Part shown: piece by piece, positions 37,422 through 64,000 of the stretch
Layout of the letters: each line of letters starts with the position of its first letter
Numbering within the stretch: the stretch's first letter is position 1
Source: Squalus acanthias
Lineage: Eukaryota
Assembly (NCBI GenBank): GCA_030390025.1
Contig: CM059430.1
Span: forward strand, 67,394,001-67,458,000
Direction: 5' to 3'
Length of the DNA stretch: 64,000 bases
The notes under the pieces: generated by a model
What the model was told of the DNA's origin: nothing
Database searches by the model: none
Seen by the model: the letters and a program-made list of their open reading frames with translations, nothing else
Translations under genes and position numbers: made by a program

Positions 37422-37476
37422 ATGTCTGTGCGCGCTGTAGTTCTGGTCATATGGGTCTTCGGGATTATTTACACAG
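37422..37476 (+). CDS. Exon 1: signal peptide MSVRAVVLVIWVFGIIYT
   Basis: ATG at 37422, hydrophobic core, phase-1 donor AG|GTATTT, in frame with the V exon. Confidence 0.85.
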
Positions 37477-40400
37477 GTATTTTCTGCTCTTTCTCTGTTT
37501 TTCTCTGCTCTCCCTCTTCTACTTTGTACATCCTGTTAATTGTATCTCCCTCATTCCAAGTTCGAGTTGTCTTTAAAATTATAGTTTTGTTTCCTGACAG
37601 TTGATATTGACGCTCAGTTCCGAGTCTCCCAAGCTCCTGAAAGCAGGAGCTTGCTCTTGGGTTCAAACATCACCTTCTATTGTACATTCCCCATTTTTCA
37701 AAATAACTCTGATGTGAGTGTTTATTGGTGGAAACTTGGCGAAAATAAATTTCTGCAAACAGCCTCCGACAACAGGAAAACATTTATCCTTTTTAAACAA
37801 GGGGGAGCCTCCTTTCATCTCCTGAATATCAGTGCGTGGGACTCTGGGGTCTATTACTGCGGAGTGAGAAACCTGGGAAGCAGGATTGTAAACGGAACAG
37901 GCTCAACGATCAAAGTCTCCGGTGAGTGAAACTGTGGAGCCGAATGAGTTGCAACACAGCGATGCGTGGTGTTCTTGTTAGAATATTAGACTAATGATGC
38001 TTCACCAAACTACACATTCAATCCATGCTACTTAATGTTAAAGCATAGTTTAACTGAAGCGGCCCCTTGAATTATATGTATTCCCTTTTTTACTGTGTTA
38101 TATACTCACTTGTATCACCGATTGATTGAGTAACTTTATTGATGCCAAAGTGTGAAAGAAGAAGTTTGCTCCAAACGCATGCTAACAGTGTTGCTACAAT
38201 AATTTTAAATCGTTTATCCAGCTCTTAGATCGATACGCCTTGATTTACTTTAATGCGCCCTATACAGTTCTAATATCTGCTCCTAATGTATCTTGAGCAC
38301 CAATAGTTTTCATATCTCTTTCCAAATTTATATAAGAATATAATATAAAATTGTTCGATTCTGCTTCTTCCCCCGTCAGTAAATATTTACTCAATTATTT
38401 GACTAAAAACGCGGGGGACAACATTTTGTAATGATAGTGCTGCGCTGTCTCGTTTGTTTCAATCTCTTATTCAAATATGAATTCTGCATACAAACACATT
38501 TTAAAAACACACCGAGCACTTTCAATTGCGAATTGTTAATGTGACTTCCAATACACCTTCCATATTATCAGTGCGCTATTCCCGTGTTATATTTCGGAAT
38601 TAACACAGCAGTATCCAGGTAACCCACATTTGCTCAGACTGAAATTTACTAAAACATAACATATGGTCTACAATGTTTTCTTTCAATATATTTATGTTCC
38701 CAAACTACAAATCAGCCGTCTTAGATGATGATCTGTTTCAAATTCTGCAAAACAAATCTCTTCGCTTTTTAAAAAAAAATGTTGCCGAATAAGAATTTGT
38801 GCATTTCACAAAACCTTTTTAACTGACACAAAACTAGAGTTGTTTAGCTTGAAATAAAAATAGTTTTTTTTGGAGGGGGACAGGATTAGATTTCAAGGTT
38901 CGCTCTGCAGTATGTTTTGTCCTATTAAATACTAACCTATTTTTCTGATGCTTTAAAATTTTGAATTGGCGGTTTATTGACAAAAATCTAACTTCAAAAG
39001 TTAAAGAATGATACAGCACAGAAGCAGAACATTTTGCCCATCGTGCCTGCGCCGGCTCTTTGAAAGAGCTATCTGAAGGCTCAATCCCCTGCTCTTTCCC
39101 CATAGCCCTGCAATATATTGCTAGAAACTGCCATAGAAGTAAAACAATCAATTATTTCCGAAATATTTGGGTTAATTAATTTTTAGATAACATTTCGCTG
39201 CAGTCATTCAAAACTAAGATACATTAATAACATCCTATTGAAGGGCTCCAAATAAAGAGAAAATAATTTATAAATTCACGAATAAAATAGAGCAAATGCT
39301 ATTTCTTACCCTTTTTTTCTACAGTTCCCCCAACTCCGCTGACGATTTTCTCCAAAGTACCTGAATTAAACTCCTCTGCTCTGAATCTCGTGTGTGAAAC
39401 GGGAGAGTTTTATCCGGGGACTCTCAACCTCACTTGGTATAAAGATGGAATTGCGATTGTAATCGGCATAGAGACAAGTACAAAGTTGAACATGAACGGA
39501 CTGTATGAAGCTTCCAGCCTGTTGAAGGAGGCACAGTCTGTCCGGAGCGGGGCTGTTTACACTTGTCAAGTGTCTCACCTGACACTGACGGATCCAGCTA
39601 GTGAGAGATTCATTGTTCCGACTTCTAACCGGGGTAAGGTGCCGACATTCTCACGAACACCATGAAATGTAGTTAAATAAGTGTACATTTACGGTGCAAG
39701 TTTAGCGTCGTTAGGAAGGCACTTCAATTAGCACCAGAGGCAAACATGTAGTGTAGATCCGCGTCAGGACCCGACTCCGAGCGAAGCGGAGTGAAACTCA
39801 TTGGAGCGGGTAGTCGCTCACTGCTTAATTTTGACTCCACACGGAGCATAAATACTGTATAATGTAATTAAGTATGTGGTATGTGGCAAATATACTTTCA
39901 ATGCAGAAACTGTAGGACATTTTTTTAAATAATTTATTTCCGGAAACTGCTAAAATATCTGCGATTCTCAATCTTCTGATGGCATGGAATGTGAAATTCA
40001 GCCTGGTGGCTGCGATAGGATGCTTGTCACTTCTCTAAATACATTTTATTATGTTTCGCCTCCACCTTAAGCGATCTTACTTTCTAACATTATTTAGTTT
40101 CTTTGCATCAACCTCGATTATCCCCGGGATTTATTCTTACTTTCTAATCCCAGGACTCTGCTAACATTGCAACTGACCATTGCGCCTTGCTGTGAAACCA
40201 GTTTAGAGGTGAATATTTGATCCTATGGCCAACTGTAGACAGGACTGAACATTATTACAGTTGCAAACTAAATGTTCTATGTACTTGACATTAATCAATA
40301 AATAGTAGGAGCTTGCAACAAAGGTAATGCAATTATCTTGGCGGACTTTAATCTTCATATAGACTGGACAAATTAAATTGGCAAAGGTAGTCTGGAGGAC

Positions 40401-43400
40401 GTGTTCATGGAATGCATACTGGACAGTTTGCTAGAACAATATGTCATGGAACGAATCAGGGAACAGGCTATTTTATATCATGTATTGTGAAATGAGACAG
40501 GGTTAATTAGCAATCTCACAGTAAAGGATCCTCTGGGGCAGTGTGATCATAATATGATAGAATTTTACATTAATTTTGAGAGTGACTTGCCCAAGTCCGA
40601 AACTAGAGTTTTAAACTTAAATAAAGCCAATTAGATAGTTATAAGGGGCGAGTTGGCTAAGGTAGATTGGAAAAATAGATTAAACGGTATGGCAGTAGAT
40701 TAGCAGTGGCTAGCATTTAAAGAAATATTTCACATTTCTCAACAAAAATACATTCCATTGAGAAACAAAAACTCCACGGGTAAAGTGATCCAACCGTGGT
40801 TAACTAAAGAAGTTAAGCTTTGCACTAGATTGAAAGAAGAAGCTTATAATGTTGCAAAGAATAATAGTAAACCTGATGATTGGGAGAGTTTCAGAAACCA
40901 GCAAAGGTTGACCAAAAAATAGATAAAAAGAGAAAAAAATAGAATGAGAGAAAACTAGCAAGAAATATAAAAACAGATTTTATGTGTTTCTACAAGTATG
41001 TAAAAAGGAAAAGAGTAGCAAAAGTAAACGTTGGTGCCTTAAAGGCTGAGACAGGATAAATTATTATGGGGAATAAGGAAATAGCAGAAATGTAAAACAA
41101 ATATTTTGTATCTGTCTTCACAGTAGAAGACACAAAATGCATACCAAAAATGGTGGGGAACTTAATGTAATTAATATAAGTAGAGAAAAGGTACTAGAGA
41201 AACTAATGGGACTAAAAGCCGACAAATCTGCAGGAGCGGATGGCCTACATCCTCGGGTTCTAAAAGATGTGGCTGAAGAGATAGTGGATGCATTGGATTT
41301 GATTTTCAAAATTCCCTAGATTCTGAAATGGTCCCAGCGGATTTGGAAGCTCGCAAATATAACACTGCTATTTAAGAAAGGAGGGAGAGAAAAAAGCAGG
41401 GTACTACAGACCAGTTAGCCTGATATCAGTAGTCGGGAAAATGCTGGAATCCATTGTTAATGAAGTGGTATCAAGTCACTTCGGAAATCATAAAATGATT
41501 AGACAGCTTCCACATGGTTTTATGAAAGGGAAATCGTGTTTGACAAATTTATCAGCGTTTTTTCAGGATGTAACTGGCAGGGTAGATAAAGGTGAACTAG
41601 TGGATGTAATATATTTGGAATTCCAAAAGGCATTCGATAAAGTGCTACATAAAAGTTTATTACACAAGATTAGGGCTCATGGGGTTGGGGTAATTTAGAA
41701 GCTTGGATAGAGGATTGATTAACGGACAGAAAACAGAGAGTAGGGATAAACGGATATTTTTCATGTTGGCAGCCTGTAACTAGTGGGGTGCCGCAAGGAT
41801 CAGTGTTGGGGCCTCATCTGTTTACAATCTATATTAATGACCTAGATGAAGGGACCGGGTGTAATGTATCCAAGTTTGCTGATAATCCAAAACTAGGTGG
41901 GAAAGTAAGCTGTGAGGAGAACACAAATAGTTTTCAAAGGGATATAGATAGCCTAAGTGAGTGGGCAGTAAGGTGGCAGATGGAGGATAATGTAGGGAAA
42001 TATGATGTAATTCACTTTGGTAGAAAGAATAGAAAAACAGAATATTGTTTAAATGGTGAGAAACTTTCAAATGTTTGTGTTCAGAGAGATTTGGGTGTCC
42101 TCGTGCGAGAAATGCAGAAAGCTGGCATGCCGGTGCAGCAAGCAATAAGGAAGGTAAATGGCATGTTGGCCTTTATTGCAAGGGGGTTGGAGTATAAGAG
42201 TAACGAAGTCTTGCTATAATTCTACAGGGCCTTGGTGAGACCACACCTGGGGTACTGTGCACAGTTTTGGTCTCCTTATTGAAGGAAGGATATACTTGCC
42301 TTGGAGGCGGTGCAACGAAGGTTCACTAGATTCATTCCTGGGATGAGAGGGCTGTCCTATGATCAGAGATTGTGTTGAATGGGCCTAGACTCTCTGGAGT
42401 TTAGAAGAACGAGAGGTGATCTCATTGAAACATACAAGATTCCGAAGGGGATTGACAAGGTAGATGCTGAGAGGTTGTTTCCCCTGGCTGGAGTGTCCAG
42501 AACTCGGGGCCATAGTCTCAGGATATTGGGTAGGCCATTTAAGACTGAGATGAGGAAAAATTTCTTCACGCAGCGGGTTGTTAATCTTTGCAATTCTCTG
42601 CCCCAGAGGGCTATGAATGCTGTGTCTTTGAGTATATTCTAGGCTGAGATAGATTGATTTTTGGACTCAAGGTGAATCAAGGGATATGGAGATCGGGCGG
42701 AAATTGGAGTAGATATCGATGATTAGCCCTGATCTTATTGAATGGCAAAACCGGCCTATTCCTGCTCTTATTTCTTATGTTCTTATGTTCACACCACGTC
42801 ATTGCAGCACTGTCGAAAAGTGTCGCTTTAGTCAATAAATCATTTGATTGAAGAACAATATCCACATCTTACTGTTTTTGTCGCTATTTTATTTTATCTA
42901 ACAGGAGATAACAATACTTCCAACCACTTTCTCATTTACGGTTGTCGGGGGGGTGGATTTATATTTCTGCTGCTGGTGATCATCATTGGAGTCGCCGACA
43001 CTGTAAGGCAAAGAGAGGTAAGAAATTAGCCATTTGGTCACGTTATTTTAGATAGAGAGTGGGCACGGATAAGTAGCAATACTATAATTTAGTTATAAGC
43101 TGACAGCAATATATTATCAGGATCGTGAACGTCTTGAAATCTAGTTCTTCATATAATTAATTAATTCACCTTTATATTTTGCATCGTGGTGACATGATTA
43201 CAGTCTAATCGCTTTGCTTGGAGCTGCAGTTTGAGAAATGTAACTCTGTGGGCTGCGAACGTCAAACACGAAGGAGTAGATTCTCAACTTGTCATCTGGG
43301 TGTAAAGCTGGCCGCCCTTTATTGAAACTGTCCGATTTTCAGCAGCATTCTTCTCAAATTGAAATTCCACGCGTTAGATTAAGATTACCGCTGGACTCCT

Positions 43401-44744
43401 CAAGAAACGTATAGCTTCTGCATACTGCAGGGTTTTGATTTTCCAAATAATGTATTGAAAGAAATGCTCAACTTTTAACATAATTAAACAAAATGCCTTT
43501 AAAACTTGATACATAAATTAAATGTATATTTTCATGAAGGATTTCTAATTTCATTCATTACTAGGAGCAGGGAGATCTGTGGAGATTTCAGACCATCATG
43601 AAGAGCGGGTAAGTTTACAACATTCACTCCGGGAGATATTTCAAATAATGAAGAGACAACTTCGACGCTCTATAATCAAGTCAATACACTCTAACACCAT
43701 TTCGTACAAATACCTTTCACGATTTATTATAATTTAGAGCATGTTCACAAAAATATTAAACCCTTGTTGTGATGATGGCAGAAGTAATGTAGGTTTTGCG
43801 AAAACTTTGCACGTTTCCTTGAAAATATATGCAATTGGCAGTTAACATCGACATTCCGAGGCCAGAAAGAGAAGTAATCAGTTCCTGCCAGCTAGAACTT
43901 CTGCGAGTCTGCATGGACTTTCCCTGAGGACATGCTCGGACTAAGCTGGGTTTTGTTCCCAGGTAGAAACTCCTACTTAGTCATTATCTGAGTTTACATA
44001 TAAAGAATGGCCAGTTGGTGAGGTATCAGAGGCGCCCAACAGCCAGATCTCAGCATGCATCAGCGCCTTGAACAATGACAGTGAGAAAATTGGTAAAACA
44101 AGTGGAATATACACAGACACGATTGAGGAATGTGAAGCAGTTTCACATGAGATCCAGTTATGACACAATTTTTCATGAACCTGGGAAAAATGAAACATCA
44201 GTATCATGCTCATTTTTCATTCAATTTTGTATTCTACTTAAAATATAACAGAAATAAACTGATGTTTTGCAGTTCATGAAGTGAGTAACGGATGAGTTAA
44301 TGCCTTATGCCCCATTAGATTTTACCAATTCCAACCTAACTGCAAGATTTATACGCCCAGAGGAAAGGACAGTTTACGCCCAGGTAAGGCTGAAAAACAC
44401 AGCAGAACCATGCATCGCCCTTGTAGAACTAAGATACAAGGGGCGCAACAATAAATGTGGTTGAGCTCACGTGTGTTACTTTAAATTAAGTCTTGTTTTA
44501 TATTGGGCCTTGCTGGTGCACACAGATAAAAACTATGAGCTAACGACTTTCCGAAACGTTGACCCCACAGACCAAGCAAGCGAGAGCTGAGAACAAGCTG
44601 ACGTATGCCGCTCTCGAACTGAGTGACGCCAAGAAAGCAGGAAAGCTCAAACCTAAGGACAAGAGCACAGAGTATGCTCAACTTAAGACAACAACCCAAA
44701 GAGGAGCAACACAGGATATCTACACAGAAGCCAGGGTCCCGTAA
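37422..44744 (+). CDS. Ig-superfamily membrane receptor, L-V(J)-C1-TM-ITIM/ITSM tail (SIRP-like / NKp30-PRARP-like); 7 coding exons, tail possibly disrupted
   Basis: Exons 37422-37476, 37601-37921, 39325-39633, 42905-43017, 43565-43608, 44273-44383, 44571-44744, all with GT-AG boundaries. L/V/C1/TM join through phase-1 introns into one open frame of 266 codons. Eight N-glycosylation sequons in the ectodomain. Confidence 0.88.
37601..37921 (+). CDS. Exon 2: V-set Ig domain with joined J-like G strand
   Basis: Acceptor TTTTGTTTCCTGACAG; RVSQAP..TFYC..VYWW..DSGVYYC..NGTGSTIKVS; donor G|GTGAGT. Confidence 0.95.
39003..39113 (-). mobile_element. CR1 LINE 3'-tail fragment in intron 2
   Basis: ACAGCACAGAAG..CCCATCGTGCC.GCGCCGG resembles the inverted CR1 3' end at 51695-51800. 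Confidence 0.7.
39325..39633 (+). CDS. Exon 3: C1-set Ig domain
   Basis: Acceptor CTTTTTTTCTACAG; LVCETGEFYP..LTWYKDG..YTCQVSH (C1 FYP and YxCxVxH signatures); donor G|GTAAGG. Confidence 0.95.
40288..42790 (+). mobile_element. 5'-truncated decayed CR1 LINE in intron 3
   Basis: Fragmented RT ORFs ([35 protein letters not shown]) with stops and frameshifts; 3' (TTCTTATG)n tail. Confidence 0.95.
42905..43017 (+). CDS. Exon 4: stalk and transmembrane segment
   Basis: Acceptor TTTTATCTAACAG; GDNNTSNH-FLIYGCRGGGFIFLLLVIIIG; donor GAG|GTAAGA. Confidence 0.85.
43565..43608 (+). CDS. Exon 5: short cytoplasmic exon (44 nt)
   Basis: TTCATTACTAG acceptor and CGG|GTAAGT donor; reads GAGRSVEISDHHEER if entered in phase 1. 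Confidence 0.6.
44273..44383 (+). pseudogene. Exon 6: tyrosine-motif tail exon containing an in-frame TGA
   Basis: TGTTTTGCAG acceptor, CAG|GTAAGG donor, 111 nt, phase 0-0: FMK*VTDELMPYAPLDFTNSNLTARFIRPEERTVYAQ. Its Tyr motifs parallel those of exon 7. Confidence 0.65.
44571..44744 (+). CDS. Exon 7: terminal cytoplasmic exon with ITIM (LTYAAL) and ITSM-like (TEYAQL) motifs
   Basis: CCCCACAG acceptor, phase 0: TKQARAENKLTYAALELSDAKKAGKLKPKDKSTEYAQLKTTTQRGATQDIYTEARVP*. Confidence 0.88.
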   Translation, partial: TKQARAENKLTYAALELSDAKKAGKLKPKDKSTEYAQLKTTTQRGATQDIYTEARVP

Positions 44745-45009: not shown

Positions 45010-46825
45010 AATGATGTTTAAAACTTTGGTTTAACAAGGTAATGGCATTTCAGTTAGAAACTGCCACATTTACCACATTTTCGTTGAATAGTCCAGCCGA
45101 TTTTCATCCCTTTTTGATCTCAATGTATCTTGTTCTCTTCCACCTTGTCTCTGTTTATTACATGTTAAATTCCCATATTCCATTTTCTCAAACTGAGTTA
45201 TCTCCCGTTTTTAACTAATAGCTATAATTAAACGGTCACATTTGTACCGTGATAGATAGTGTTTTCGCAAGGCTGTCAGTTATTTAAAGCAAGGCTCTTA
45301 CAGTTAATTAAATATTGATTTCAATTATTGCGCCATCAGTTAATGAGGAACAATAGAGATAGAGACTGGCGGAAGTGACTAGCAATAACATAAGTGTTAG
45401 AATGATTTTTTACCGATCAACACTGAGTTCTGTCTATAAGTTTTGCTCTATGTTCTGCATTAATTCACTGAATTAATGCATTTACTTACATCTTCCCTAA
45501 AACATGCAAATAAATTAGTAACATTATACGAAATATGCAGCGACGTAAAGTACAGTGACAGCAGCCAATTATGTTAATCATTGTTGTACACAGTTATTCA
45601 CCTATTTTTAATCATTGTCACTTTCAATATGTATCTCGCAAAATCGATCCTAAAATCATTACTGATTATTTGGTGCGTATACCTTCAATCAGGTTTGAGA
45701 ATGAAGTTTATAAGTGATTTGAATATCAGAGAATCCCAAATTAAATATCTTCAAAAATGTGTTACCATTTCTCAACACTTACCCTATTACTTAAAGCTGC
45801 TGACATGATATAACACATCATGTGTGTTACGCTTTTTGCAGCCCAGCAGGGAAAACGTTATGAATAAATTCAAGCACTGATACATGTTGATTAGATGCCT
45901 GTTTTACTGAGACAATGCTAAATTTGTAAGGGAAAATCAGAACAGTTCGAATAAATTCTATTTCTATTTTTATATTTCCAATAGCAATGCTTTTAATACA
46001 TTTGACGCACGCTTCTTTCTGTACCTGACATGTATAATTAAAATATCTCGGAACATTTCCCCCACATTATTAACTTCGTTTTATTTCTGTTTTATAGCTG
46101 TGGTAACAGTTTCACTGGTATTCGATAGAAGTGTATAACTGTGAATACATTGCTCCAGTTCAGCCATAAAATAAAGAACTGCTCACAGCTCCATTTATTC
46201 AATAAAAATATATAACTGTGTACAAATATCTCTATTTCTGCAGCAATATTATATAACTGAGTTTCTATATTAAAAAAGCTTAGAAGTATGAAAAATTGCA
46301 ACTTTCTTGTGAACGCTTTTATTCTTTTTTTAATTTTCTCCACGGAAATATACATTCCCAAAATGTAGCTTCTCCCTATAATGGATATTGATTGAATAGT
46401 TTACAGTCTTATGATTTTAGGACCTGAAGTATTCCTTCGAAAGCAAAATGGAATTGGTCAGATTAATTTAACAGCGTTACATTACTGTATACTGTGGTAA
46501 AATATTACGTTCTCTGCCCACAGTCAGTTACGTTGATTTTCCGATTTTTCAGTCTTTTTATCAAGGGAGTTGAATCGAGTTGGTGATACTACGGAACGAG
46601 ATGGGGTAAGGGATTTGGTATAGTGCGTCGGTCCCATTGAGTGTGTTCATATTAGGGGTTGAGTGAGATGGAACGTCAGATCAGGGACTTGTCAAATTGT
46701 CGTTGGGCCATTTCGACTAAGTCTTTATCACTCTCCTGAGGAATTAAAAGTATTTTGTCTTCTCCTCAGATTTAGTTCAATTAAATCTCAAATGTCCAAC
46801 ATAAGTGGTCTTATTTCTTGTTTTG

Positions 46826-46928
46826 TATTCGTTTTATGAGATGTTGGCGTCGCTGGCAAGGCCAGCATTTATTGCCCATCCCTAATGGGCATTGAGATGA
46901 TGGTGGTGAGTCGCCCTCTTGAACCGCT
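46826..46928 (-). mobile_element. LINE 3' tail fragment, same family as 35374-35721
   Basis: Reverse complement TAGGGATGGGCAATAAATGCTGGCCTTGCCAGCGACGCC matches about 35659-35697. Confidence 0.75.
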
Positions 46929-48489
46929 ATCATGTGGCTATCTAATTCATCTTTCATGTATATTTATAACAGAAAAACGGCCAAACGTCGCTATTTTCAT
47001 TGTGGGGCGTTACTTTTTAATATTGTAGTAGAACTACAGTCTTTTCTTGTAGTATTTTTGGTTACCATCAGAACCGTTTTTCAGTAAACCGCTTATATAC
47101 GCCACATTCTGTGACATAAAATGCATAATTGATTATTGCAATTGATAATTCCCAACTCGGGTTAAAGGATGTATCACAGGCCTCTTAAACAAGTGCGATG
47201 ACGTGTTTTTAATTAGTAACATATAAATAACACTGAGGTCCTTTTATTGAGTGTAATCTAATAAATGTTATTAAAAATATAATATTCCTCCAAAGTACTG
47301 TGACACAGCATATGAATCTTAGGTTTTCCCCTGCATCTCTCAATAATCTAATCCCCGCACAAGTACGGAGAAGACACACAAGTGATATCAAAATACTCAG
47401 TGATAGTGAGAGAATTTTCATCAATGGAAGATTCTCGAATTGTTTCATCTTCTTACACTAAATGTCCAAAGAAATGCGTGCTATCTCACTATTACATCTG
47501 AAGTTTTTCATTCGGTTAAGTACAGCAGTCAATGAAATCTTGTATATTCAAGAGAAGCAGTGATATAGTTAAATTGATACTGTGTTATTCAAAATGATCG
47601 TTCCAGTAAAGTTTCCGAAAATAGAAGTCGCTCCACTTTCTGACGCAAGCACTCATTTAGCTACATTTACTCTCTTTACGAAGTTATTTTTGTACTTTCA
47701 AGATCTTCAGCGTCTGCACCGAAACCGCAGCATCTGGTGACTACATTCAGTCGTTCCAACGGTTGAGAATAAATAGCAAGCATGATTTTACTTAATATAA
47801 ATCATTGTGGTTACCCGAGTTCACGTACTCCACGTAATGGAACTTTTTTGGGGTTAATTGTTTCGTTCACGTTCTTGTCAAATACAGGCTAGTTCATTTC
47901 CTGGCTAAATTAGACATGTTAAATTTCCTCTAACTAATATGACACTGAAAAGAGTAAGGCACGACACCTTTAGGAGGGCCTAGTAGGAGATCCAATTGTG
48001 TAATTATTGCATGGTTGTATTTGTTGAAAATATAAATCAATAGTGAATGAGACTTTTCTAGTGGAGTCTAACATGGTTCAGTGTTCAGTCCAGTAGTGGG
48101 ATTCCTCTACATCAGGTATGAAATCAGTTGTCGGGGTTTGGGGGGCGTGGTGGGCGGCGATTGGAGCATTATTTTTCAAAAAATATAATTTTCATACTTT
48201 AAATACTGCGTTTTCAGTATTTGGAGCAATCCCTCCAGTCAGATATTCATCTCTGTGTTGCGCATAGGCCATGTTTAACGCCTCGGCGGTAAAGACGAAA
48301 AGAGGCCCAGAGAGATAAAACTGGACAGATCTCTAATTCGTCAGATGGATCCAGAATGTGCCAGGTGACTAGTTACTGACGAATAAGCTGAACACAGTTG
48401 GGCTCAAAACACTCCCTTGAGGTAATCCTACAGTAACGTCCTTAGATCTGCGATAATTAGTCTCCGACGAGTATCAACTTCTGCCACGT

Positions 48490-48713
48490 TAGAATTCAGC
48501 TAAGATTCTGGAATTCCCTTTCCAAATTTGTGCGCCTCTCCACCCCGTCTCCTCGTTTAAATCCCCGTTAATAGCTACCTCTTTGTAAAAATGTTAGTCA
48601 AGCCTCCTAATATCCTGTTCTTTGGGTCTCTGTCCTTTTTTTATATTACTCTGGGAAGTGTCTTCCGATGTTTTTTCTCATTAAAGTTGCTATATAGATA
48701 AAACATGTTGTTG
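48490..48713 (+). mobile_element. Old L2-like LINE 3' end
   Basis: TCTGGAATTCCCT..TACCTCTTTG..TTAAAG..GCTATATA.AT..TGTTGTTG terminal pattern, from recall; highly diverged. Confidence 0.5.
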
Positions 48714-49053
48714 AATACATTTACATACTTTCAGTCATGTATTTTGCAGTCACACGCTGGATTGCAGATGTTCACGAAACATTCTCGTCCCCCTGTTGGT
48801 TGTCAGGTTCTACATCACAATTCTCAGCTGAATTTGTTCAGGATGGAAAGCGTTATTCTGATCTGTTGTTTGTGAGGCCATTTAGTTCGGCCAATCGCCT
48901 ACTTCTATTGGTGTTTAGAAGTCAGGACACCGTGTCTTATGATGTCATATAGGTTTATGCCTCTTTATGCCTAGCGTTGCTTAAGGCATACCCTGCTACA
49001 CTCCTCATTGAACTCAGGTTGTGCTTCTGCCATATAATATGTTGCTGTTGATA

Positions 49054-51157
49054 TGAATGAATTGCAACTGTTATGCATTCCATTCTGGCGCAATATCACA
49101 AAAGGAAAAGCGGCACAACCATGGCTAACAAAATAAATTAAGGATAGTATTAGGTAAAAAGAGGAGTCATTTAAAGTTGCCAGAAAAAGTAGCAAGCCTG
49201 ATGATTGGGAGCATTTTAGAGTTCAGCAAAAAGGACCAAGAGATTGATTAAGAGGTGAAAAATATAGTATGAGAGTAAACCTGCAAGGAACATAAAAGCG
49301 GATTGTCAAAGTCTCTACAAGTATGTAAAAACAAATTTTTTAATGAAGGCAAATGTAGGTCCCTTACAGTCAGAAACAGGAGAATTTATAATGGGGAACA
49401 AGGAAATGGCTGAGAAATTAAACAAATACTTTATTTCTGTCTTCACGGAAGAGGACACAAATAACTTCCGAGAAATGCTGGCGAACCAAGGGTCTAGTGA
49501 GAAGGAGGAATTAAATGAAATTAGTATTAGTAAAAAAATAGTGCTCGAGAAATTAATGGGACTGAAAGCTGATAAATCTCCAGGGCCTGATAATCTGCAT
49601 CCCAGAGTACTAAAAGAGGTAGCCATGGAAATAGTGGACGCATTGGTTGTCATCTTCCAAAATTCTATAGATTATTGAACAGTTCCTGCAGATTGGAGGG
49701 TGGTAAATGTAACCCCACTATTTAAAAAAGGAGGGAGAGATAAAACAGGGAACTACAGACCGGTTAGCCTAACATCAGTATTAGGAAAAATGCTAGAGTC
49801 TATTATAAAGGATGTGCTAACAGGACACTTAGAAAATATCAACGGAATTAAACAAATTCAACAAGCATTTATGAAAGGGAAATCTTTTTTGACAAACCTA
49901 CTGGAGTTTTTTGAGGACGTAACTGGTAGAATAGATAAGGGAGAACCAGTGGATATGGTGTATTTGGATTTTAAGAAGACCTTTGATAAAGCCCAACGTA
50001 AGAGGTTAGTGTGCAAAATTAAAGGACATGGGATTGGTGTTAATATAATGGCACGGTTTGAAAATTGGTTAACAGACAGGAAACCGAGAGTAGGAACAAA
50101 TGAGTCTTTTTCAGGGTGGCAGGCGGTGACTCGTCGGGTACCGCAGGGATCAGTGCTTGGGCCCCAGCTATTCAGACTATATATCAATGATTTGGATGAG
50201 GGAACCAAATGTAATATTTCCAAGTTTGCTGACGACACGGAACTAGGTGGGATTGTGAGTTGTGAGGAGGATGCAAAGAGGCTTCAAGACGATTTAGACA
50301 AGTTGAGTGAGTGGGCAAATACATGGCAGATGCAGTATAACGTAGATAAATGTGATGTTATCAAGTTATGTAGGAAAAACAGGAAGGCAGAGTATTATTT
50401 AAATGGTGCTAGATTGGGAAATGCTGATGCACAAAAGGAACTCGGTGTCTTTGTACACCAGTCACTGAAAGCAAACATGCAGGTGCAGTAAGCAGCTGTG
50501 AGGCAAATGGTATGTTTGCCTTCTTTGCAAGAGGATTTGAGTACAAGAATAAGGATGTCTTACTACAGTCGTACAGGGCCTTGGTGAGACCACACCTTGA
50601 GCACTGTGTGCATTTTTGGTCTCCTTACCTAAGAAAGGATATACTTGCCATAGAGGGAGTGCAGCGGAGGTTCACCAGACTGATTCCTGGGATTGCAGGA
50701 CTGTCGTATGATGAGCGATTGGGTTGAAAAGGCCTATATTCCCCAGAGTTTAGAAGAATGAGAGGGGATCTCATTGATACTTAAAAAATTCTGAGATGGC
50801 TAGACAGACTGGCTGCAGGGAGGATGTTTCCCCTGACTGGGGGTCGGGTCCAGAACGAGGGGTCACACTCTCAGGATACTGGGTAGTATATTCTGGACTG
50901 AGGTGAGGAGAAATTTCTTCACTCAGAGGGTGGTGAACCTGTGGAATTCTCTACCACAGAAGGCTGTGGAGGCCAAGTCACTGAATATATTTCAGAAGGA
51001 GATAGATAGATTTCTAGACATAAAAGGCATCTAGGGGTATGGGGAGAGAGTTGGAATATGGTATTGAGATAATGGATCAGCCATGATCATATTGAATGGC
51101 GGAGCAGGCTCCAAGGTCCGAATGGCCTATTCCTGCTCCTATTTTTCTATGTTTCTA
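49054..51157 (+). mobile_element. 5'-truncated CR1 LINE
   Basis: RT ORF 49700-50491 (NYRPVSLTS, VPQGSVLGP, KFADDT); (TTTCTATG)n tail; flanked by TGATA at 49049-53 and 51158-62. Confidence 0.95.
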
Positions 51158-51686
51158 TGATAGCCCACAGCGCCTCACGGATATCCAGTTTTGGGCTGTA
51201 AGTCTTTCCGTAGCCTTTTCCAATTCTCACTGTGGCAATGACAGACTACATGGCTGACGTTTTCCTTTCTGTGATGATAAGGCACTGTCTTCACCAGGAA
51301 TGCTCAATGATCACGCCTACTAATGTTGTTGTGGACAGACAGTTAGTTTACTAAGGATGTGGTCAATTAGTTTGCTCCCTCGTGTAGATTCCTTTACCAT
51401 GTGTTGCAGATACAGTTAGGAAGTTATCTCCTGCAGGACTCTGCCTATGTTGAACTACCAGAAATCAATGGTGGTGGACATCGAGGTAACCCGATCTCAC
51501 TCTGAGTTTCATACAACTGATGCTTCAAAATTGAAGATGACTGATTGGTCCGTTCAGTAGGGCGGTAGGTGATTATCAGCAGGACATAACATTGCTCTTT
51601 CCTGAACATAATCCATGAGACTTTAGGTAGTCAGAGTCAATGTTGAGGACTCCTAGATCCACTCCCACCCGACTGTATACAACTGT

Positions 51687-54021
51687 TATATAATCATAGA
51701 AATTTATGGCACAGAAGGAGGCCATTCGACCCATCGTGCCAGTGCCGGTCGGAAAAGAGCTAACTATCCTAATCCCACTTTCCTGCTCTGGGACCTTAGC
51801 CTTGTAGGTTACAGCACTTCAAGTACATAACAAAGTATTCTTTAAATGTACTGAGGGATTCTGCCTCTTTCACCCTTTCAGGCAGTGAACTCTAGATCCC
51901 CAACACCCTCTGGGTGAAAAAAAAAATCACCTCATCTCCCCTCTTATCTTTCTATCAATTACTTTAAATGTATGCCCCCTTGTTATTGAAATCTTTGCTA
52001 AGGGAAATACGTCCTTCCTATCCATACTTTCTTGGCCCATCATAACTTTTACACCTCAATCAAGCCTCTCCTCAGCCTTCTGTGTTCCAAAGAAAACAAC
52101 TCCAGCTCGTCAAATCTCTCCTCATAGGTAAAATGCTTCAGTCCTGGCAACATCCTCGTAAATGTCCTCTGTACCCTCTCTTCTGCAATCACATCTGTCC
52201 TGAAAAGTGGTGACCAGAACTGTGAGCTGGGGCCTAACTCGTGTTTTATAGCGCTCTGGAATAAACTCTCTGCTCTTATATTCTATGCCTCGGCTAATAA
52301 AGGAAAGTATCCCCGATGCATTCTTAACCACCTTCTCTAAATGTCCTGCTACCTTCAGGAATTTGTGGACATGTATCCAAAGTCCCTCTGTTCCGCTGCA
52401 TTTCTGAGTATCCTACCATGTATTTCATATTCCCTTAATTTGCTAGCCCTCCCCAAATGCATTACCTTGCGCTTCTCCAGATTGAATTAAATTTGCAACT
52501 TTTCTGCCCACCTGACATTGATATCTACCTGCAGACTACAGCTAACTTACTCACTATCAACCACTTGGCCAATTTTTGTATCATCTGCAAACTTCTTAAT
52601 CATGACCACTACATTGAATTCTAAATCATTGATATGTACCACAAAAAGCAAAGACCTAGTTCTGAGCCCTGTGGAACCCCATTTGAAAAAGCCTTCCAGT
52701 CACAAAAACACCGGTCGAATATTAGCCTTTGCCCCGGCCACTGAACCAATTTTGTATCCAACTTGCCGTATTCCCTTGGATCCCATGGACTTTTACTTTT
52801 TTGCAACCAACCTTGTTAAAATCTATGTAGAATATATCAAATGAACTTCCCTGATTGATCCTCCTCGTTACCTCCTCAAAAAATTCAATCAAGTAAGCCA
52901 GACATGAACCTCCCTTAACAAATCCATACTGATTGTCCCAGATTAATCTGTGTCTTTCTAAATGAAGATTTATCGTGTCCCTCAGGTATGTTTCCAATAA
53001 TTTTCCCACCACCGAAGTTAGGCTGAGTGGACTGTAATTACTTAGTCTATCCCTTTCTCCCTTTTTAAACAATGGCACAACGTTGGCAATCCCCAGTCCA
53101 CTGGCACTACACCAGTAGCCAGAGAAGATTGGACAATGATGGTTAGAGCCTCCACTATTTACTCCCTTGCCTCGCTTAACAGCTTTGGGTACATTTAATC
53201 CGAGCCTGGCGGTTCATCCACAATCAAAGATGCTAAACCTCTTAATACTTCCTCTCTCTCTATGGTTATCCCACCTAATATTTCACACTCCTTCTCCTTA
53301 ACTACAATGTCTGCATCGCCACTTTCTTCTGTGAAGACAGACGCAAAGTATTGATTAAGAACCATGCCCACGTCTTCCGCCTCTACAGGTAGGTTATCAT
53401 TTTGGTCTCTAATCGGCCCTACTCTTTCCTTAGTTATTCTCTTGCTCGTTACGTATTTATAAAACGTTTTTGGATTTCCTTAATTTTACGTGCCAATATT
53501 TTTTCATGCCCTCTCTTTGCTTTCCATTTTCCTTTTTAAATTCACTGCTGCACTTTCTATACTCCTCGGGGCTTTCTGTGGTATTGAGCTCCTGGTATCT
53601 GACAAAAGTTTGCCTGGTTTAACTTAACCTACCCTGTATTCTCCTTAAAATTCAGGGGGCTCTATATTTTGGTGTCCCACCCTCTTGCTTTGTGAGAACA
53701 TATTGGCTTTGGGCCAACTCTATCTCCTCCTTGAATCCCTCTCACTGCTCTGACACTGATTTATCTTCCAGTAGCTGTTTCCAGTGCACTCTAGTTAAAT
53801 CACATCTCAGCTTAGTAAAATTGGCCTTTCCCGAATCGAAAACTTTTATGGCTTGTCAATCTTTGTCCTTTTCTATAACTACATAACTTTCTAACTGAAT
53901 TATGATCACTATCCCCAAAATGCTCCCCCACTGATACCACTTCCACCTGCTCAGTTTAATTCCCTGAAATTAAGTCCATAACTGCCCCTTCTCTTGTTGA
54001 GCCTGTTACGTACTGGTTAAA
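51687..54021 (-). mobile_element. 5'-truncated CR1 LINE (HER1-like tail)
   Basis: Minus-strand RT fragments (PLFKKGERD, YGFVKGGSCL, GVPQGS); inverted tail ATCATAGAAATTTATGGCACAGAAGGAGGCCATTCG; flanked by AACTGT at 51681-86 and 54022-27. Confidence 0.93.
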
Positions 54022-55096
54022 AACTGTGTCCCAAACTTCGGTAGGTCTATCCTGCCATTGAGGCACGACATAAGCAGAAATGTTTATGGAGCTCACTCGG
54101 ACGGTGGTTCGTAGATATGTGTCTACGAATATCATGTGACAGGCTTTTGCTTGAGGAGTCAGTGGAACGGCACTACCAGTTTAGGTAGCAGTCCTCTGAT
54201 AGCAGCGAGAAGGACTTTGCAGATTTAACTACGCCGAGAATGCACAAGTCTTTTCCTGATGGTACTGATACGTATATCCTTACACTTTTGAACTGTTTTA
54301 TCAATTTTACAACTCATGGCTTAAGAAACGACTTTTAAAGGGCCTTTCATACCGTGCTGGACGGGAATAATTTGTACGCCTGCACGCAGAAAGGGAGCAG
54401 GACATTGATGAACCAGTTTGCGGTTTACAGCAATCAGGCAGCTTCTGTGGTTAATGTTATGGCAGTGGCCCATATGTTACTTGATTTCTTGAATTCTACT
54501 TGACAACTTGACGTGTTGGGGTTTGAACATTTATTTCTGGATTGCTGATCCAGCAGCGAAATATCTACATTATTGTACCCTGTCTTCCAATACAAATCAT
54601 GAATCCGGCTGTGGCAGTTAATCGATGCTGCATTTATACATATTTAGCATAGATATTTTAATATATGGAGCCGAACGAAAATAAATTTGCATTTCCAATG
54701 TGTCTGATATGCAATGCATTAAGGACTTTCAGCGAAGATAATTCCACATAGTTAGAGGTTCAGTTTGCCCATTATGAAGCACTCACTTCCGCAACAGCCA
54801 CACAGACTGCTCACTTATGTCCAGAGAACGTGTAACATTGGTTGTCAGAGCCAAGGCCCAGAGACCCCCACGTTTGTTCGGGGAACTTTGGAGTTGAATC
54901 AATCACACCCTCGCAGCCAAACAGTACAGAACACAGCTAACCTCACTGTTGCTTGTCTGTCTTCTACTTTTAGTTGCCGGCGTTATCTGGAGCCAAGAGG
55001 GAATATTCTTGGCCTTAGTGCCCTACGCTCCTGAGGTACTGTTTGGCTCTGGGGGCAGATCACCAATTCTGCCTCGGAGGTTAACGGTTCTGAATT

Positions 55097-55130
55097 ATAG
55101 AATCATAGAATAGTACAGCACAGAAGGAGA
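55097..55130 (-). mobile_element. Very short CR1 3'-tail remnant
   Basis: ATAGAATCATAGAATAGTACAGCACAGAAGGAG is the inverted (TTCTATGA)n tail, as at 51693 and 60255-60283. Confidence 0.6.
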
Positions 55131-55556
55131 CCTCATCAGATACGTAACGTTGTCTCCCATTCAACATACATTTTCCTGCTTATTTCCCCTCTCCCCAAGA
55201 TTAAAATTCGTTAATTTATCTTCAACAAATTGTCAAGCACAGATTTGATCTCTTGTTTTACGAGCTAATCATCTATTACATAACGAAAAACATAACTCTG
55301 CATAAGGTATTTTTGAATGATTCTCCATCGATCACAGCATAGGTGAAAGCAATAGCCTAATGAACAATCGTTCCAGGATCTGGGCATGGAGCTGCTTCCA
55401 TTTCCCCCTCTTTATACCCAATAATAGTTGACAGGGAATCTTGTACGAGCCCATATTGCCGTACACGGTGTTAGAGTAATTTATTTATTCACCTTTCATC
55501 CCAAAGACTAACAGATTTCTCGTCATTTACAGAAGGTGAATAAATTAATTAGAGGT

Positions 55557-56505
55557 ATGGCAGGGCAGCTCACACCCGTGGAATGCACATCCTGTGCCAT
55601 GTGGGAAGTCCTGGACACCTCCCGTAGTCTGGACGACCACAAGTGCGGGAAGTGTCGTCAGCTACAGCTGCTCGAACACCGGGTTACGGAGCTTGAGTTG
55701 CGGCTGCAGTCACTGCTGTGCATCCGTGAAGCTGAGAGCTACGTGGATAGCATGTTTCGGGAGGCGATCACCCCGCAGCTTAAGAATGTGCAGGCAGAGA
55801 GGGCATGGGTGAGCGTCAGACAGAAGAGGAAGACCAGGCAGGTAGTGCAGGAGTCCCCTGAGCCCATCTTGCTCACCAACCAGTATTCGGTGTTGAGTAC
55901 TGGTGAGGTCGATGTTTCCTCTGGGGTGAGCAGCCAGGGCCAAGTCCACAGCACCATGGAAGGATCAGCTGCACATGCAGGGGGGAAGAGGAGAGGGGGA
56001 GAAATCGTGATAGGGGATTCAATAGTGGGGAGCAGACATGCATTTCTCCGGACGCAGACGTGACTCCAAGATGGTGTGTTGCCTCCCTGGTTCCAGGATC
56101 AAGGATGTCACTGAACGGCTGCAGGGCATTTTGTGGGGGGAGGGTGAACAGCCAGAGGTCGTGGTCCATATAGGTACCAACGACATAGGTAGGACGAGGG
56201 ATGAGGTCCTGCAGTCAGAGTTTAGGGAGCTAGGGAATAGGTTAAAAAGCAGGACCTCAAAGTTAGTAATCTCTGCATTACTAACAGTGCCACGTGCTAG
56301 TGAGTAGAGAAATAGGAAGATAGAGCAGATGAATGGGTGGCTGGGGAGATGGTGTAGGAGGGAGGGCTTTAGATTCCTGAGGAATTGGAACCGTATCTGT
56401 GGGAGGTGGGACTTCTACAAGCCAGACGGGGTGCACCTCAACGGGAACGGGACAAATATCATCGCGGGAGGGCTTGCTAGTGCTGTTGGGGAGGGTTTAA
56501 ACTAG
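55557..56505 (+). pseudogene. CR1 ORF1: Cys-rich/coiled-coil N-terminus plus SGNH esterase domain, disrupted
   Basis: CTSC..CGKC, leucine heptads, VIGDSIV, VVHIGTND, DGVHL; frameshift near 56030 and stop at 56305-07. Confidence 0.85.
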
Positions 56506-57166
56506 CTTGGCAGGGGGATGGGAACATAAGTATAGAGTCAATAGCGAGGGAAGAAAAACTGGAATTGGAAAACAAAAACGTAGTAAGTAAATTGGAAGGA
56601 CAGAGGAATCAGGGGCCAGATAGTAGTCAACAAGGAGGTTTGCCTGTACTAAATGGTATATACTTCAATGCAAGGAGTATACCGAACAAGGTAGGTGAGC
56701 TGAGGGCACAGGTAGATACTTGTGACTATGATATTATAGCTATTACAGAGACGTGGCTGAAAGGGGGGCAGGTATGACAGCTAAACATTCCTGGTTACAG
56801 GATTTTCAGACGGGATAGAGAGGGAGGTAAAAAGAAAGGGGCGTCATGGTATTGATTAAATAAACTTTTACAACTGTGAGGAGGGATGACATTTTGGGGG
56901 GATCATCAAACGAGGCCATATTGGTCGAATTGAAAAACAAAAAAGGGGCGGTGACACTGCTGGGAGTGTACTACAGACCCCCAAACATTGAGAGGGAGAT
57001 AGAAGCACAAATATGTAGACACATTTCTGAGAAGTGGAAAAGCTATAGGGCAGTAATAGTAGGGGATTTAAACTACCCCAATATTAATTGGGATAAAATT
57101 AGTGTGATCGATATCGTGGGTGCGGAATTCCTAAAATGCATCCAGGAGAACTTTTTTAGCCATTAT

Positions 57167-57912
57167 TGGCCCAGAAATTGATCTCGCTCTGTTCCCGCGG
57201 GGGTAAGCCTTCCCCGCGGTGTCTCACCTCGCTTGTGCTTTTTCAGATCCAGCTCGCACGAACTTGATGTTCCAGACATCAGCTATGCTGGGCTTGTGTA
57301 TCCCAGCGGCGTAGTGAATTCGTGCGAGCTGTGGGATCACGTGACTCAGTTAGAGCCAATGGCAGCACACCATCTTCCATTCATAAGTTTCACAGACCTG
57401 CTGTGAAATCTATGAATCTTACACCCCCCCAAAATAACAGATAAACCTCAATTAAATTTTTTAAAAAAACCATCACATTAATAAAATAAGTATAGTTAAT
57501 TAAATTAACCATTTTAAATAAAAAATTAAATTTTTGAAAACATTTAAAATCTTTTAAAAAGTTATAAAAATAAACTTACCTGTCTTTAAAGTCTCTAAAA
57601 AAGATATACCTGTAAAAAATTATTCAAAAAGATACTTAATTCACTACTTACCTTCTTAAAAGCGGGTCTTACTCCTCCTTTTTACATTTCCAAAATCTTC
57701 CCTACTTACCTGCGCGTCCAAAGCATGAAGTGGACAGCGTGCGCGCAGCCTGTAGCGCGCACGCGATGCACCCAGGACCCGCCCCCTTTTCAGAAGAGCA
57801 ATTGCCGGTTTTCAGCGCATGCGCAGGGCATGCAGAAAACCGGCAATTGGAGTGGGAATACGCGAGAGTACGCACTGCGTACTCTCGCGTCCCGGGATCA
57901 ATTTTCGGCCCA
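57167..57912. mobile_element. 746-bp non-autonomous DNA transposon (MITE-like)
   Basis: 20-bp TIRs matching 16/20 (TGGCCCAGAAATTGATCTCG vs reverse complement TGGGCCGAAAATTGATCCCG), flanked by TTAT. Removal restores CR1 ORF2 (FFSHYVASPTR). Confidence 0.88.
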
Positions 57913-60324
57913 TTATGTCGCAAGCCCAACAAGGGAGGGGGCGATTCTGAGCTTAGTTTTAGGGACTGAAGCTGGGCAGGTAGAAGACGTATCAGTGGAG
58001 GACCATTTTGGTGCTAATTACGATAATTCTGTTAGATTTAAGATAGTTATGGAAAAGGACAAGAATAGACCAGGAATAAAAATTCTAAATTGGGGAAAGC
58101 AAATTTTGCTTAGCTCAGAGGGGATTTATCCATAATGGACTGGAAACAGCTACTTGAAGGTAAATCAGTGTCAGAGCAGCGGGAGGCATTCAAGGATGAG
58201 ATCCGGAGGGTTCAGACCAAATATGTGCCCTTAAAAAAAAATGTGAGACTAACAAATCTAGAACCACCTGGATGTCTAGAGACATACAGGGTAGGATAAA
58301 GAAAAAAAGGGTGGCGAATGACAGATACCGAGGGCTAAATACTCCAGTATCCTTAGAGGAGTACAGAAAGTGCAGGGGTGCAATTAAAAAGGATATTAGG
58401 AAAGCAAAGAAGAGACCATGAAAAATTCTTGGCAAGTAAAATCAAGGAAAAACCCAAAGATGTTTTATAAATATGTTAAGAGTAAGAGGATAACTAAAGA
58501 GTGGGTAGGGCCTATTAGAAATCATGACGGTAATCTGTGTGTGGAGGCAGGAGACGTCGGTAAGGTTCTTAATGAATACTTTGTGTCTGCTTTCACAAGG
58601 AAGAGAGGTGAAGCAGACTTTGTTATCAGGGTCGGAGGAGTGTGAAATTTTAGATGAAATAAACATAGTGAGATAGTAAGTATTAAGGGGTTAAGCAGCT
58701 GTAAAAGTGGATAAATCCCCAGGCTCGGATGAAATGTATCCCAGGCTATTAAGAAAAGCAAAAGAGGAAATAGCAGAGGCCCTGACCTTCACTTTTCAAT
58801 CCTCTCTGGTTTCAGGTGTGGTGCTGGAGGACTGGAGGACTGCTAATGTGGTACACTTCTTTAAAAAGGGAGAAAAGGATGGACTGAGTAATTACAGGCC
58901 AGTCAGACTAATCTCGGTGGTGGGAAAATTATTGTAAAGAATTCTGAAGGACAGGATAAATCTTCATTTTGAAAGACACGGATTAATCAAGGATAGTCAG
59001 CACGGATCTGTTAAGGGAAGGTCCTGTCTGACAAACTTGATTGGATTTTTTGAGGAGGTAACAAGGAGGGTAGATGAGGGTAGTGCGTTTGATGTAATGT
59101 ATAGGGACTTTAGCAAGGCTTTTGATAAGGTTCCGCATGGCAGACTGGTCACAAAGTTAAAAGCCCATGGGATCCAGGGCAAAGTGGCAAGTTGGATTGA
59201 AAACTGGCTCGGAGACAGGAAGCAGAGGGTATTGGTTGATGGGTGTTTTTGAGAATGGAAGGCTGATTCCAGAAAGCTTCCGCAGGGCTCAGTATTAGTT
59301 CCCTTGCTTTTTGTGGTATATATCAATGATCTAGACTTGAATATAGGGGGTATGATTAAGAAGTTTGCAGATGATACTAAAATCGGCTGTGTGTTTGATA
59401 CTGAAGAAGGAAGCAGTAGACTGCAGGAAGATATCAGTAAATTCGTCAGGTGGGCAGAACAGTGGCCAATGGAATTCCATCCGGAGAATTGTAAGGTAAT
59501 GCATTTGGGTGGGGGGTAACAAGGAAAGGGAATACACATTAAATGGTAGGACACTGAGTAGTGTAGAGGAATAAAGGGACCTTGGAGTGCATGCCCACAG
59601 ATAACTGAAGGTAGCAGGCAAGGTAGATAAGGTGATTAAGAAGGCATAAGGAAAGCTTGAATTTATTAGCAATGGCATGGAGTGCAGGAGCAGGGGGGTT
59701 ATGCTTCAGCTGTATAAAACACTAGTTAGGCCTCAGCTAGGGTACTGCGTGCAGTTCTGATCACCACATTACAGGAAAGATGTGATTGCACTGGAGAGGG
59801 TCCAGAGCAGAGTTACAAGGATGTTGCTGGGAGTAGAGAATCTTAGCTATGAGGAAAGACTGGACAGGCTGAGTCTGCTTTCCTCGAAACAGAGGAGGCT
59901 GAGGGGAGACCTTATTGAGGTGTGTAAAATTATGAGGGGCATAGATAAAGTGGATAGAAAAGACCGGTTTCCATTAGCAGAAGGGTCAAACACCAGGGGG
60001 CACAGATTTAAAATAATTAGTGGAAGGTTTCGAGGAGAGTTGAGGGGAAATTTCTTCACCCAGAAGGTTGTGGGTGTCTGGAAAACACTGGCTGAAAGGG
60101 TGGTAGAGGCAGAAAACCTAATTACATTTAAAAGTACTTCGATGTGCACTTGGGATGCTCTAACCTGCAGGTCTACGGACCAAGAGCTGGGAAGTCGGAT
60201 TAGGCTGATAGCTCTTTGTTGGCCAGTGCGAACACGATTTGCCGAAATGGCCTCCTTCCGTGCTGTAACTTTCTATGATTCTAACTGATATATACTTACA
60301 TCATGTTAGAAATAAAAAATATTT

Positions 60325-63272: not shown

Positions 63273-64000
63273 GTCATGTGCGAGGCAACTTGCAAACAAC
63301 ACTCACCTTAATGATACATTGAAGTCTGATGCTAGACACAAGGCTTGCTCATACACCAGCTAGTTAATATAACCGGTAATGTGATGGGTAATGCGATACA
63401 GAGTTTGACTGCCCTTCCAGTTACTCAAACACATGTCATTATAGGGCAGAGCCCTGACATGCCGCAGCCGTTTTCCCTTTTGTTTCAAAACTCATCTCAC
63501 GACATGGCCCTTGGTCAAGCATATTGGGCACACTAACATTTATTTGGCATGCCCATGAATTCTGAACAAGATGCATAATCATTTGAACACTTCTGCTTAC
63601 CAACATCCGGAGATTTTTGTGCAACCAGAATCAGTTAGCCCTCCGGACTCTAAGGAAATGGTTTAAGGCAATTGAACCGCGTACACCATATTTCCCCCCA
63701 ATAACCATATTGGGAGTCCTCTTTTGAGTCTTGCAAAGCCATCGTACTGCACCCTGTACAATGACCAACATATTACACTGCTTATTCTCTTGTTCTAGAC
63801 TACGTACAATATCCCTTGAGGTTCTCTTCAACTCCCACCAGAAAGTGTTGCACTCTCGGGATTACGCCGCAATTTGCTGCAATATCATTAACTGGGCAGC
63901 GATGTCAATGTCGCACCTAGAACCTTATTGACATCCTGCCCAGTTCGCCAACAACATGGCCCAATAAAAAGCTGAAAACAGTGAACAGTGGCCATAACTC

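Follow-up and report, generated by a model that had tools for sequence, protein, structure and literature searches.

A tail-less VJ-C1 gene of Squalus acanthias in a large clustered chondrichthyan family, likely of paired immune receptors

Does a non-rearranging, antigen-receptor-like gene of Squalus acanthias encode an inhibitory receptor, and to what family does it belong? The gene lies at positions 37422–44744 of a 64,000-nucleotide stretch of contig CM059430.1 (the window; C6:67.39–67.46 Mb of a 3.7-Gb genome). A first-pass annotation made from the letters alone had read it as a joined VJ domain followed by a single C1 domain, a transmembrane (TM) segment and a SIRP-alpha-like inhibitory tail with up to five tyrosines. 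We consider it probable that the window gene is a tail-less copy in a chondrichthyan family of about 110 clustered VJ-C1 genes, likely paired inhibitory and activating immune receptors. What chiefly marks this system, some 110 clustered genes of two opposite membrane/tail types, is not visible from the window alone.

The cluster comprises about 110 V-C1 genes on one chromosome (C6, 57–77 Mb). The window V exon has at least 128 genome matches, 122 of them on C6, and the C1 exon at least 150 scored matches, 121 on C6; each count was drawn from 150 scored candidates and is a lower bound. On C6 the V and C1 matches span 57.5–76.9 Mb. Two second pieces of split exons were dropped, and 113 of the 120 V matches then used have a C1 exon on the same strand within 25 kb (111 distinct C1 exons). 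A further 100 stretches of 10 kb were examined, with 13 V matches left out as fragments, as broken or as having no near C1. Both domains are open at 72 of the 96 loci that hold V and C1. The 77 cleanly cut V exons have a median identity of 39%; 65 keep the GxG[S/T] J-type strand, and a pattern resembling a recombination signal sequence (RSS) was found in none of the 77. The closest locus pairs (96.5–97.2%) involve the block at 67.4–67.8 Mb, which is probably either a recent duplication or a divergent haplotype, and no pair reaches 99% over 5 kb. Scans for homeobox, G-protein-coupled receptor and Ras genes gave no marker on C6 between 55 and 80 Mb. The C6 markers that were found lie away from the cluster: those at 89–122 Mb presumably resemble X-linked human genes, and a pair at 46.6 Mb presumably LTB4R. 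None of 50 major histocompatibility complex (MHC) class I matches falls on C6. The checks of paralogue number and synteny proposed in the first-pass annotation thus yielded about 110 genes on C6, but no linkage to MHC class I or to SIRP neighbours, those scans having given no marker between 55 and 80 Mb.

The family has two membrane/tail types. Among the 103 loci having C1, 13 carry an Arg-TM form (R..L.FLVIL..T.I.VDH) with no tail exon seen and 27 carry a neutral-type TM together with a tyrosine-tail exon; the remainder have the tail only (7), a neutral-type TM only (33) or no TM within 10 kb (23). Of 69 loci with a TM match, 39 have a charged TM core and 30 a neutral one; a tail was seen at 7 of the former and 21 of the latter (Fisher p = 2e-5). 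On a V tree of 55 rows, made of loci and proteins of clear type (three were skipped by the cutter), membrane/tail type changes 10 times, at least eight of these changes being forced by starred branches. A single Arg-TM clade on the V tree was rejected (approximately unbiased test, p-AU 4e-35). The V domains of L090 (Arg) and L107 (tail) are identical, and the two loci are 94.6% alike over 2.9 kb holding V and C1; likewise, the nearest relatives of the window V after an intact paralogue are Arg-TM genes at 95%, 89% and 82%. The type switches, together with an opposite pair sharing one V domain, therefore form a paired-receptor signature. The layout of paired receptors is found here: clustered genes with similar ectodomains, carrying either a tail of ITIM (immunoreceptor tyrosine-based inhibitory motif) type or a charged TM without a tail seen. 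The Arg-TM resembles that of FcR-gamma-coupled receptors, and the genome holds two zeta/FcR-gamma-type adaptor genes, which we take to be CD3-zeta-like and FcR-gamma-like. KIR, Ly49, LILR and CD200R likewise give rise, again and again, to activating forms next to inhibitory ones whose ectodomains are nearly the same (PMC9291319), although those ectodomains are unrelated to the family's. At two Arg-TM loci (L024 and L026; C6:68.15 and 75.47 Mb), the junction after C1 runs into a duplicated 5' region with a broken second C1 and then the Arg-TM exon, apparently the trace of a module swap. Elsewhere (L045, L051, L053, L059–L062 and L120–L131) Arg, at some loci also Asp, stands in a neutral-type TM with no intact tail seen, and these subgroups are possibly independent conversions.

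The family extends across cartilaginous fishes. A Heptranchias homologue search returned 52 proteins, from sharks, rays or chimaera wherever a species was shown. Forty-seven are V-C1 and one is V-C1-C1; 20 have tyrosine-pair tails and 8 an Arg-TM, both types occurring in sharks, and the tyrosine-pair tails are kept from chimaera to rays. Among the best 150 matches of an index-free search a gap in profile score separates family proteins (C1 79–152 bits, complete V 83–139 bits) from outsiders (at most 54 bits for C1 and 58 bits for V); 20 matches of this search were named, and moderately related bony-vertebrate V-C1 families may exist beyond the best 150. Twenty of the 52 proteins are automatically named SIRP-alpha-like, and other labels are tapasin-related, Ig lambda-like, NCR3LG1-like and CD276-like. 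The family definition corrects labels scattered over SIRP-alpha-like, tapasin-like, Ig light-chain-like and B7H6-like. We found no account of the C6 cluster in the searchable literature; articles on VJC1, PRARP and shark NCR3 in J Immunol and Immunogenetics, which may mention the genes, lie outside it. Sequence evidence supports the earlier proposal of a poorly characterised chondrichthyan germline VJ-C1 family whose intact members have SHP-type tail motifs, and the window gene has no one-to-one orthologue among described genes. Outside the shark family, the highest-scoring V domains belong to turtle multi-VJ receptors with ITIM tails and an Arg-TM form (P0084, P0121, P0124 and P0172). In one database model (P0221), possibly a gene-model artefact, a turtle V domain is fused to a CC-chemokine domain.

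Some of these labels raise the idea that the proteins are B7/butyrophilin-like ligands or adhesion molecules with a V-C1 ectodomain, their tail motifs being incidental. The best two-domain fold match is indeed B7-H6 (Z 15.5, r.m.s.d. 5.0, 193 aligned), tied with unrelated Ig proteins, and the NCR3LG1-like and CD276-like names point the same way. We nevertheless regard this idea as very improbable, given the J-type strand in 65 of the 77 intact V exons, the retention of tyrosine-pair tails from chimaera to rays, the anti-correlation of charged TM and tail, and the separate clade formed by B7H6-like sequences.

In phylogenetic trees the family is one clade for V (support 98/97), for C1 (100/100) and for the concatenated domains (100/100). 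The trees held SIRP, UrIg, IgH and B7H6-like sequences and a VJ-C1 pair from C5; NITR, named PRARP, NKp30, tapasin and T-cell receptor (TCR) sequences stood outside them. Kinship of the family with NCR3-like or PRARP-like genes, with UrIg or with SIRP is neither supported nor firmly rejected by them. The separate V and C1 trees suggested in the first-pass annotation delimit the family but do not fix its place among SIRP, UrIg, IgH, B7H6-like sequences and the C5 pair.

SIRP deserves particular attention, as the cluster could be the chondrichthyan SIRP locus itself: true orthologues that lost one C1, moved, and likely sense a CD47-like self marker. PDYN and NSFL1C, which we take to be the human SIRP neighbours (20p13), have counterparts on C11 (33.2 and 31.0 Mb; two SEP loci were found), whereas the cluster is on C6, and no shared synteny was found. 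SIRP-beta couples to DAP12 through a Lys. The auto-naming of 20 of the 52 proteins favours a SIRP locus, as do the top two Atlas feature matches, both SIRP-alpha clusters (0.97 and 0.96), and the third place of SIRP-alpha in the PDB profile search, aligned over the whole V-C1 span (scores there sum over domains). Elsewhere in the genome no clear SIRP gene turned up. Yet a lizard SIRP V query gave 112 genome matches, none of them on C6, and a SIRP V profile scores family V domains at 6–28 bits, below turtle and shark NCR3-like V domains (29–41 bits); no specific V similarity to SIRP was found. A grouping of the family with SIRP has p-AU 0.044 in one, smaller V tree, a borderline rejection lost with more rows, and 0.22–0.49 in five other tests (larger V tree, 0.26; C1, 0.24 and 0.49; concatenated, 0.25 and 0.22). 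In the best trees the family is never the sister of SIRP. Orthology to SIRP is thus unsupported as far as the sequences go, and we judge a SIRP locus unlikely. SIRP-alpha (PDB 2wng) shares with the family a joined VJ and a true C1, with an ITIM tail on the inhibitory member, and a bat SIRP-alpha-like protein (P0166) shares its repeated tyrosine pairs; SIRP has two C1 domains, whereas the family has one (47 of the 52 proteins being V-C1, not V-C1-C1), about 110 genes and an Arg at the start of the TM. A further claim, that the family links VJ-C1 receptors to SIRP, was not borne out, for SIRP already has a joined VJ domain (PMC11599192) with C1 domains and ITIMs (PMC2785349), and the trees do not decide. 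SIRP is mentioned nowhere in the accessible main text of PMC10751288 and PMC12227049; in the accessible supplement of the former, SIRP-alpha-like labels occur in the reedfish gene tables only. Nine such labels stand there on reedfish chr12, eight of them at 8.3–11.7 Mb, a possible bony-fish cluster.

Other germline VJ genes resemble the family in part. Two on C5 (L143 and L145; 145.18–145.38 Mb), which carry an EIPPP motif and lie about 2 Mb from a CD3-zeta-like gene (143.2 Mb), form a separate clade outside the family, with sister status in one of two trees (79/57). This pair is a likelier PRARP counterpart than the C6 family; the PRARP label and the linkage to the CD3-zeta-like gene are our assumptions. 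C26 holds a cluster of tandem VJ exons that we take to be NCR3-like (L162–L165 and L171–L179; 13.5–17.1 Mb), with many MHC class I matches on the same contig at 30–38 Mb. These V exons are distinct from the family, their sister status not being rejected (p 0.19). NCR3/NKp30 itself is MHC-linked and has a single V without C1, whereas the family has a C1 and no MHC class I match lies on its contig. NKp30/NCR3 and UrIg/UrIg2 share non-rearranging VJ exons in sharks (PMC12227049), though UrIg has several C1 domains. PRARP/VJC1 genes share the germline VJ-C1-TM layout (genes named in PMC10751288). Together with SIRP, NITR and NKp30, PRARP counts among the joined-VJ genes (PMC11599192). NITRs, reported from ray-finned fish (PMC6795676), were compared by description only: those of teleosts are also a large clustered germline VJ family with inhibitory and activating forms, but with a V or V-I ectodomain, whereas the second domain here is C1-set. 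In rearranging Ig and TCR genes, V and J are split by RSSs, which the family's V exons lack.

What, then, is the window copy? By V its nearest relative is an intact paralogue 7.4 Mb away (C6:74.83 Mb). Over 10.4 kb the two are 96.5% identical, and the spliced paralogue encodes an uninterrupted protein of 375 residues with tyrosines in MPYAAL, TVYAQT, LTYAAL, TEYAQL and DIYTEA. By comparison, the window lacks one G at 42986–42987 and has TGA at 44282–44284 in place of GGA. Three splice routes tried on the window copy give 282–308 residues with none of the five named tail motifs in frame. As assembled, the window copy does not make the five-tyrosine tail, because the deletion in the TM exon shifts the frame and a stop stands in the exon of MPYAPL. 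The tail and TM exons proposed at the outset are thus present, and their motifs are open in the paralogue, but in the window the tail is out of frame and interrupted. Even in the paralogue only LTYAAL and TEYAQL match common patterns of ITIM or ITSM (immunoreceptor tyrosine-based switch motif) type; MPYAAL, with Met at −2, the spliced TVYAQT and DIYTEA do not, so the inhibitory motifs of the first-pass annotation hold in part.

Where the paralogue's TM has Thr, that of the window copy has Arg, and an Asp follows 17 residues later, the same spacing as in the closest Arg-TM paralogues. Across V and C1, 5 of 630 bases differ between the two copies, where 18 are expected at the intron rate of 2.9% (Poisson p 2e-4), a deficit that would fit selection on the ectodomain or gene conversion, either one; in the TM and tail exons, 15 of 442 bases differ. 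The window copy seems to derive from an inhibitory gene. Its V and C1 exons stay conserved and its tail is drifting, so the likeliest reading is either a receptor that does not signal or activates only weakly, or a young pseudogene. The position of the new Arg relative to Asp makes a conversion into an activating form possible, though this is speculation.

Alternatively, the assembly could be wrong at both lesions, in which case the window gene would encode an intact inhibitory receptor, as its paralogue does. The deletion shortens a run of G, the sole RNA-type contig over its site has the G, and the most similar locus pairs involve the 67.4–67.8 Mb block, where a divergent haplotype may have been placed twice. 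But the two lesions are independent, one being a substitution, and further changes occur in the same exons; no locus pair reaches the near-identity noted above as absent (99% over 5 kb); and a second contig has window-type TM letters with the Arg codon, so a window-type allele exists apart from the assembly. We therefore hold assembly error to be improbable.

Several observations weigh against a tail-less copy in a paired-receptor family. Splicing is shown in one run only, X1, which has low depth and was taken as RNA by guess, none of the listed runs being recorded as RNA; runs X2–X4 gave nothing on the tail region. Two X1 contigs link the end of C1 to the TM exon. The first, which spans the deletion site, has paralogue-type TM letters and the missing G, so the reads do not confirm the deletion; GT..AG joints carry it on to 43565 and from there to the acceptor 44319. 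Translation along this route ends after six residues, so that no tail tyrosine is reached even when the frame is intact. The second ends at 42953, upstream of the deletion. The V exon has no read cover in X1 and the V-C1 joint was not seen there; the evidence for this joint is the splice phases together with gene models from databases. Of the splicing and transcript checks proposed earlier, then, an open product was obtained for the paralogue and C1-TM-tail joints for X1, but not a motif-bearing window protein, cover of V or a tail joint that stays open. Within the family, V or C1 is broken or short at 24 of the 96 loci; the TM cores were cut by a crude rule (some have edge charges and L045 was mis-cut) and the loci are related; 'no tail seen' covers 10 kb plus 44 terminal-exon matches; and ligand, cell type, phosphorylation and adaptor steps are inferred by analogy.

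The exons themselves (leader, VJ domain, true C1, membrane segment and tyrosine-tail exons) are real: seven exons on the + strand with GT/AG ends make up the gene region (Table 1). The V exon scores 32.9 bits against Pfam V-set (cut-off 26) and is 82% identical to Heptranchias perlo P0003. As first described, this one exon encodes a complete V including the J-type strand, NGTGSTIKVS, at its end, and no RSS heptamer or nonamer was found in 37.0–45.3 kb. The single C1 that follows is likewise confirmed by a C1-set match of 44.2 bits (cut-off 21) and by FYP, 13 residues from Cys to Trp and CQVSH, which are C1 hallmarks (PMC2785349). The predicted V model (predicted local distance difference test score 89.8) matches V-type folds, VNAR and NCAM being tied at Z 14.6; fold searches gave generic V and C1 matches with no separation, and the absence of SIRP from the rows listed excludes nothing. 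Profile searches of the PDB with V or C1 alone were taken up by multidomain chains. The intron between C1 and TM holds a retroelement, presumably LINE/CR1, shared with the intact paralogue and absent from two other close paralogues; a target-site duplication was looked for at this insert and none was found.

Table 1. Features of the VJ-C1 gene in the window
Feature	Positions	Strand	Evidence and remarks
Leader exon (ATG, signal peptide)	37422..37476	+	Phase 1; N-termini of P0003, P0005 and P0006 match
V exon, germline-joined VJ, GTG-type G strand, without RSS	37601..37921	+	V-set match; V-type fold
C1-set exon	39325..39633	+	C1-set match; RNA-type contig over 39429–39630 with 1 difference
Decayed LINE-type (long interspersed nuclear element) retroelement, C1–TM intron	40266..42789	+	Reverse-transcriptase-like open reading frames (ORFs); gap in paralogue alignment
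TM exon	42905..43017	+	Thr-to-Arg at 42946–42948; 1-base deletion 42986–42987, frame shifted before tail; contigs join C1 end
Short cytoplasmic exon, out of frame in window copy	43565..43608	+	One contig spans the GT..AG joint 43017/43565
Internal tyrosine-pair tail exon (MPYAPL..TVYAQ)	44273..44383	+	Stop at 44282–44284; alternative acceptor 44319 in one contig
Terminal tail exon with LTYAAL and TEYAQL	44571..44744	+	Not reached in frame in window copy

Around the gene, positions 1–35373 of the window hold about 857 copies of a 43-bp satellite that forms higher-order repeats of 5938 and 4491 bp. It extends upstream of the window (L154), and no such satellite lies upstream of the intact paralogue. 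Positions 46000–64000 hold mainly decayed retroelement ORFs on both strands and no further exon of the VJ-C1 family; an Rfam scan of 35–64 kb gave no match.

Our preferred reading, a tail-less copy in a family of paired receptors, joins what was observed (a gene cluster with two membrane/tail types that switch repeatedly on near-identical ectodomains, and two lesions in the window copy) to signalling and ligands modelled on SIRP and the paired families. By that analogy the family likely works like SIRP, NITR or KIR. The V domain would bind a cell-surface ligand. In neutral-TM members the tyrosines of LTYAAL and TEYAQL would be phosphorylated and recruit SHP-1 or SHP-2, whereas members with an Arg-TM would associate with FcR-gamma or CD3-zeta, whose immunoreceptor tyrosine-based activation motifs would carry the signal. 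Inhibitory members may read self ligands and activating members may counter pathogens that exploit the inhibitory ones, ectodomains being exchanged between the two kinds of module. The signalling analogy draws on SIRP (PMC2785349) and the rest on paired-receptor theory (PMC9291319). A bolder version, which we put forward only tentatively and hold to be rather doubtful, is that an ancient, independent germline VJ-C1 lineage grew into a paired complex of more than 100 genes, equivalent to KIR, Ly49 or NITR, and that the window gene is an inhibitory receptor turning activating, which has gained the TM arginine, lost the ITIM tail and kept its ectodomain under constraint.

A cluster of about 110 genes, in which inhibitory and activating forms are matched, makes it testable which receptors allow killer or myeloid cells of sharks to distinguish self from non-self. 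In cartilaginous fishes the cluster may correspond to the receptor families of natural killer cells. Here the V-C1 scaffold of antigen receptors is seen to diversify by gene duplication and module swapping, not by RAG rearrangement, a point that matters for models of the ancestor before RAG.

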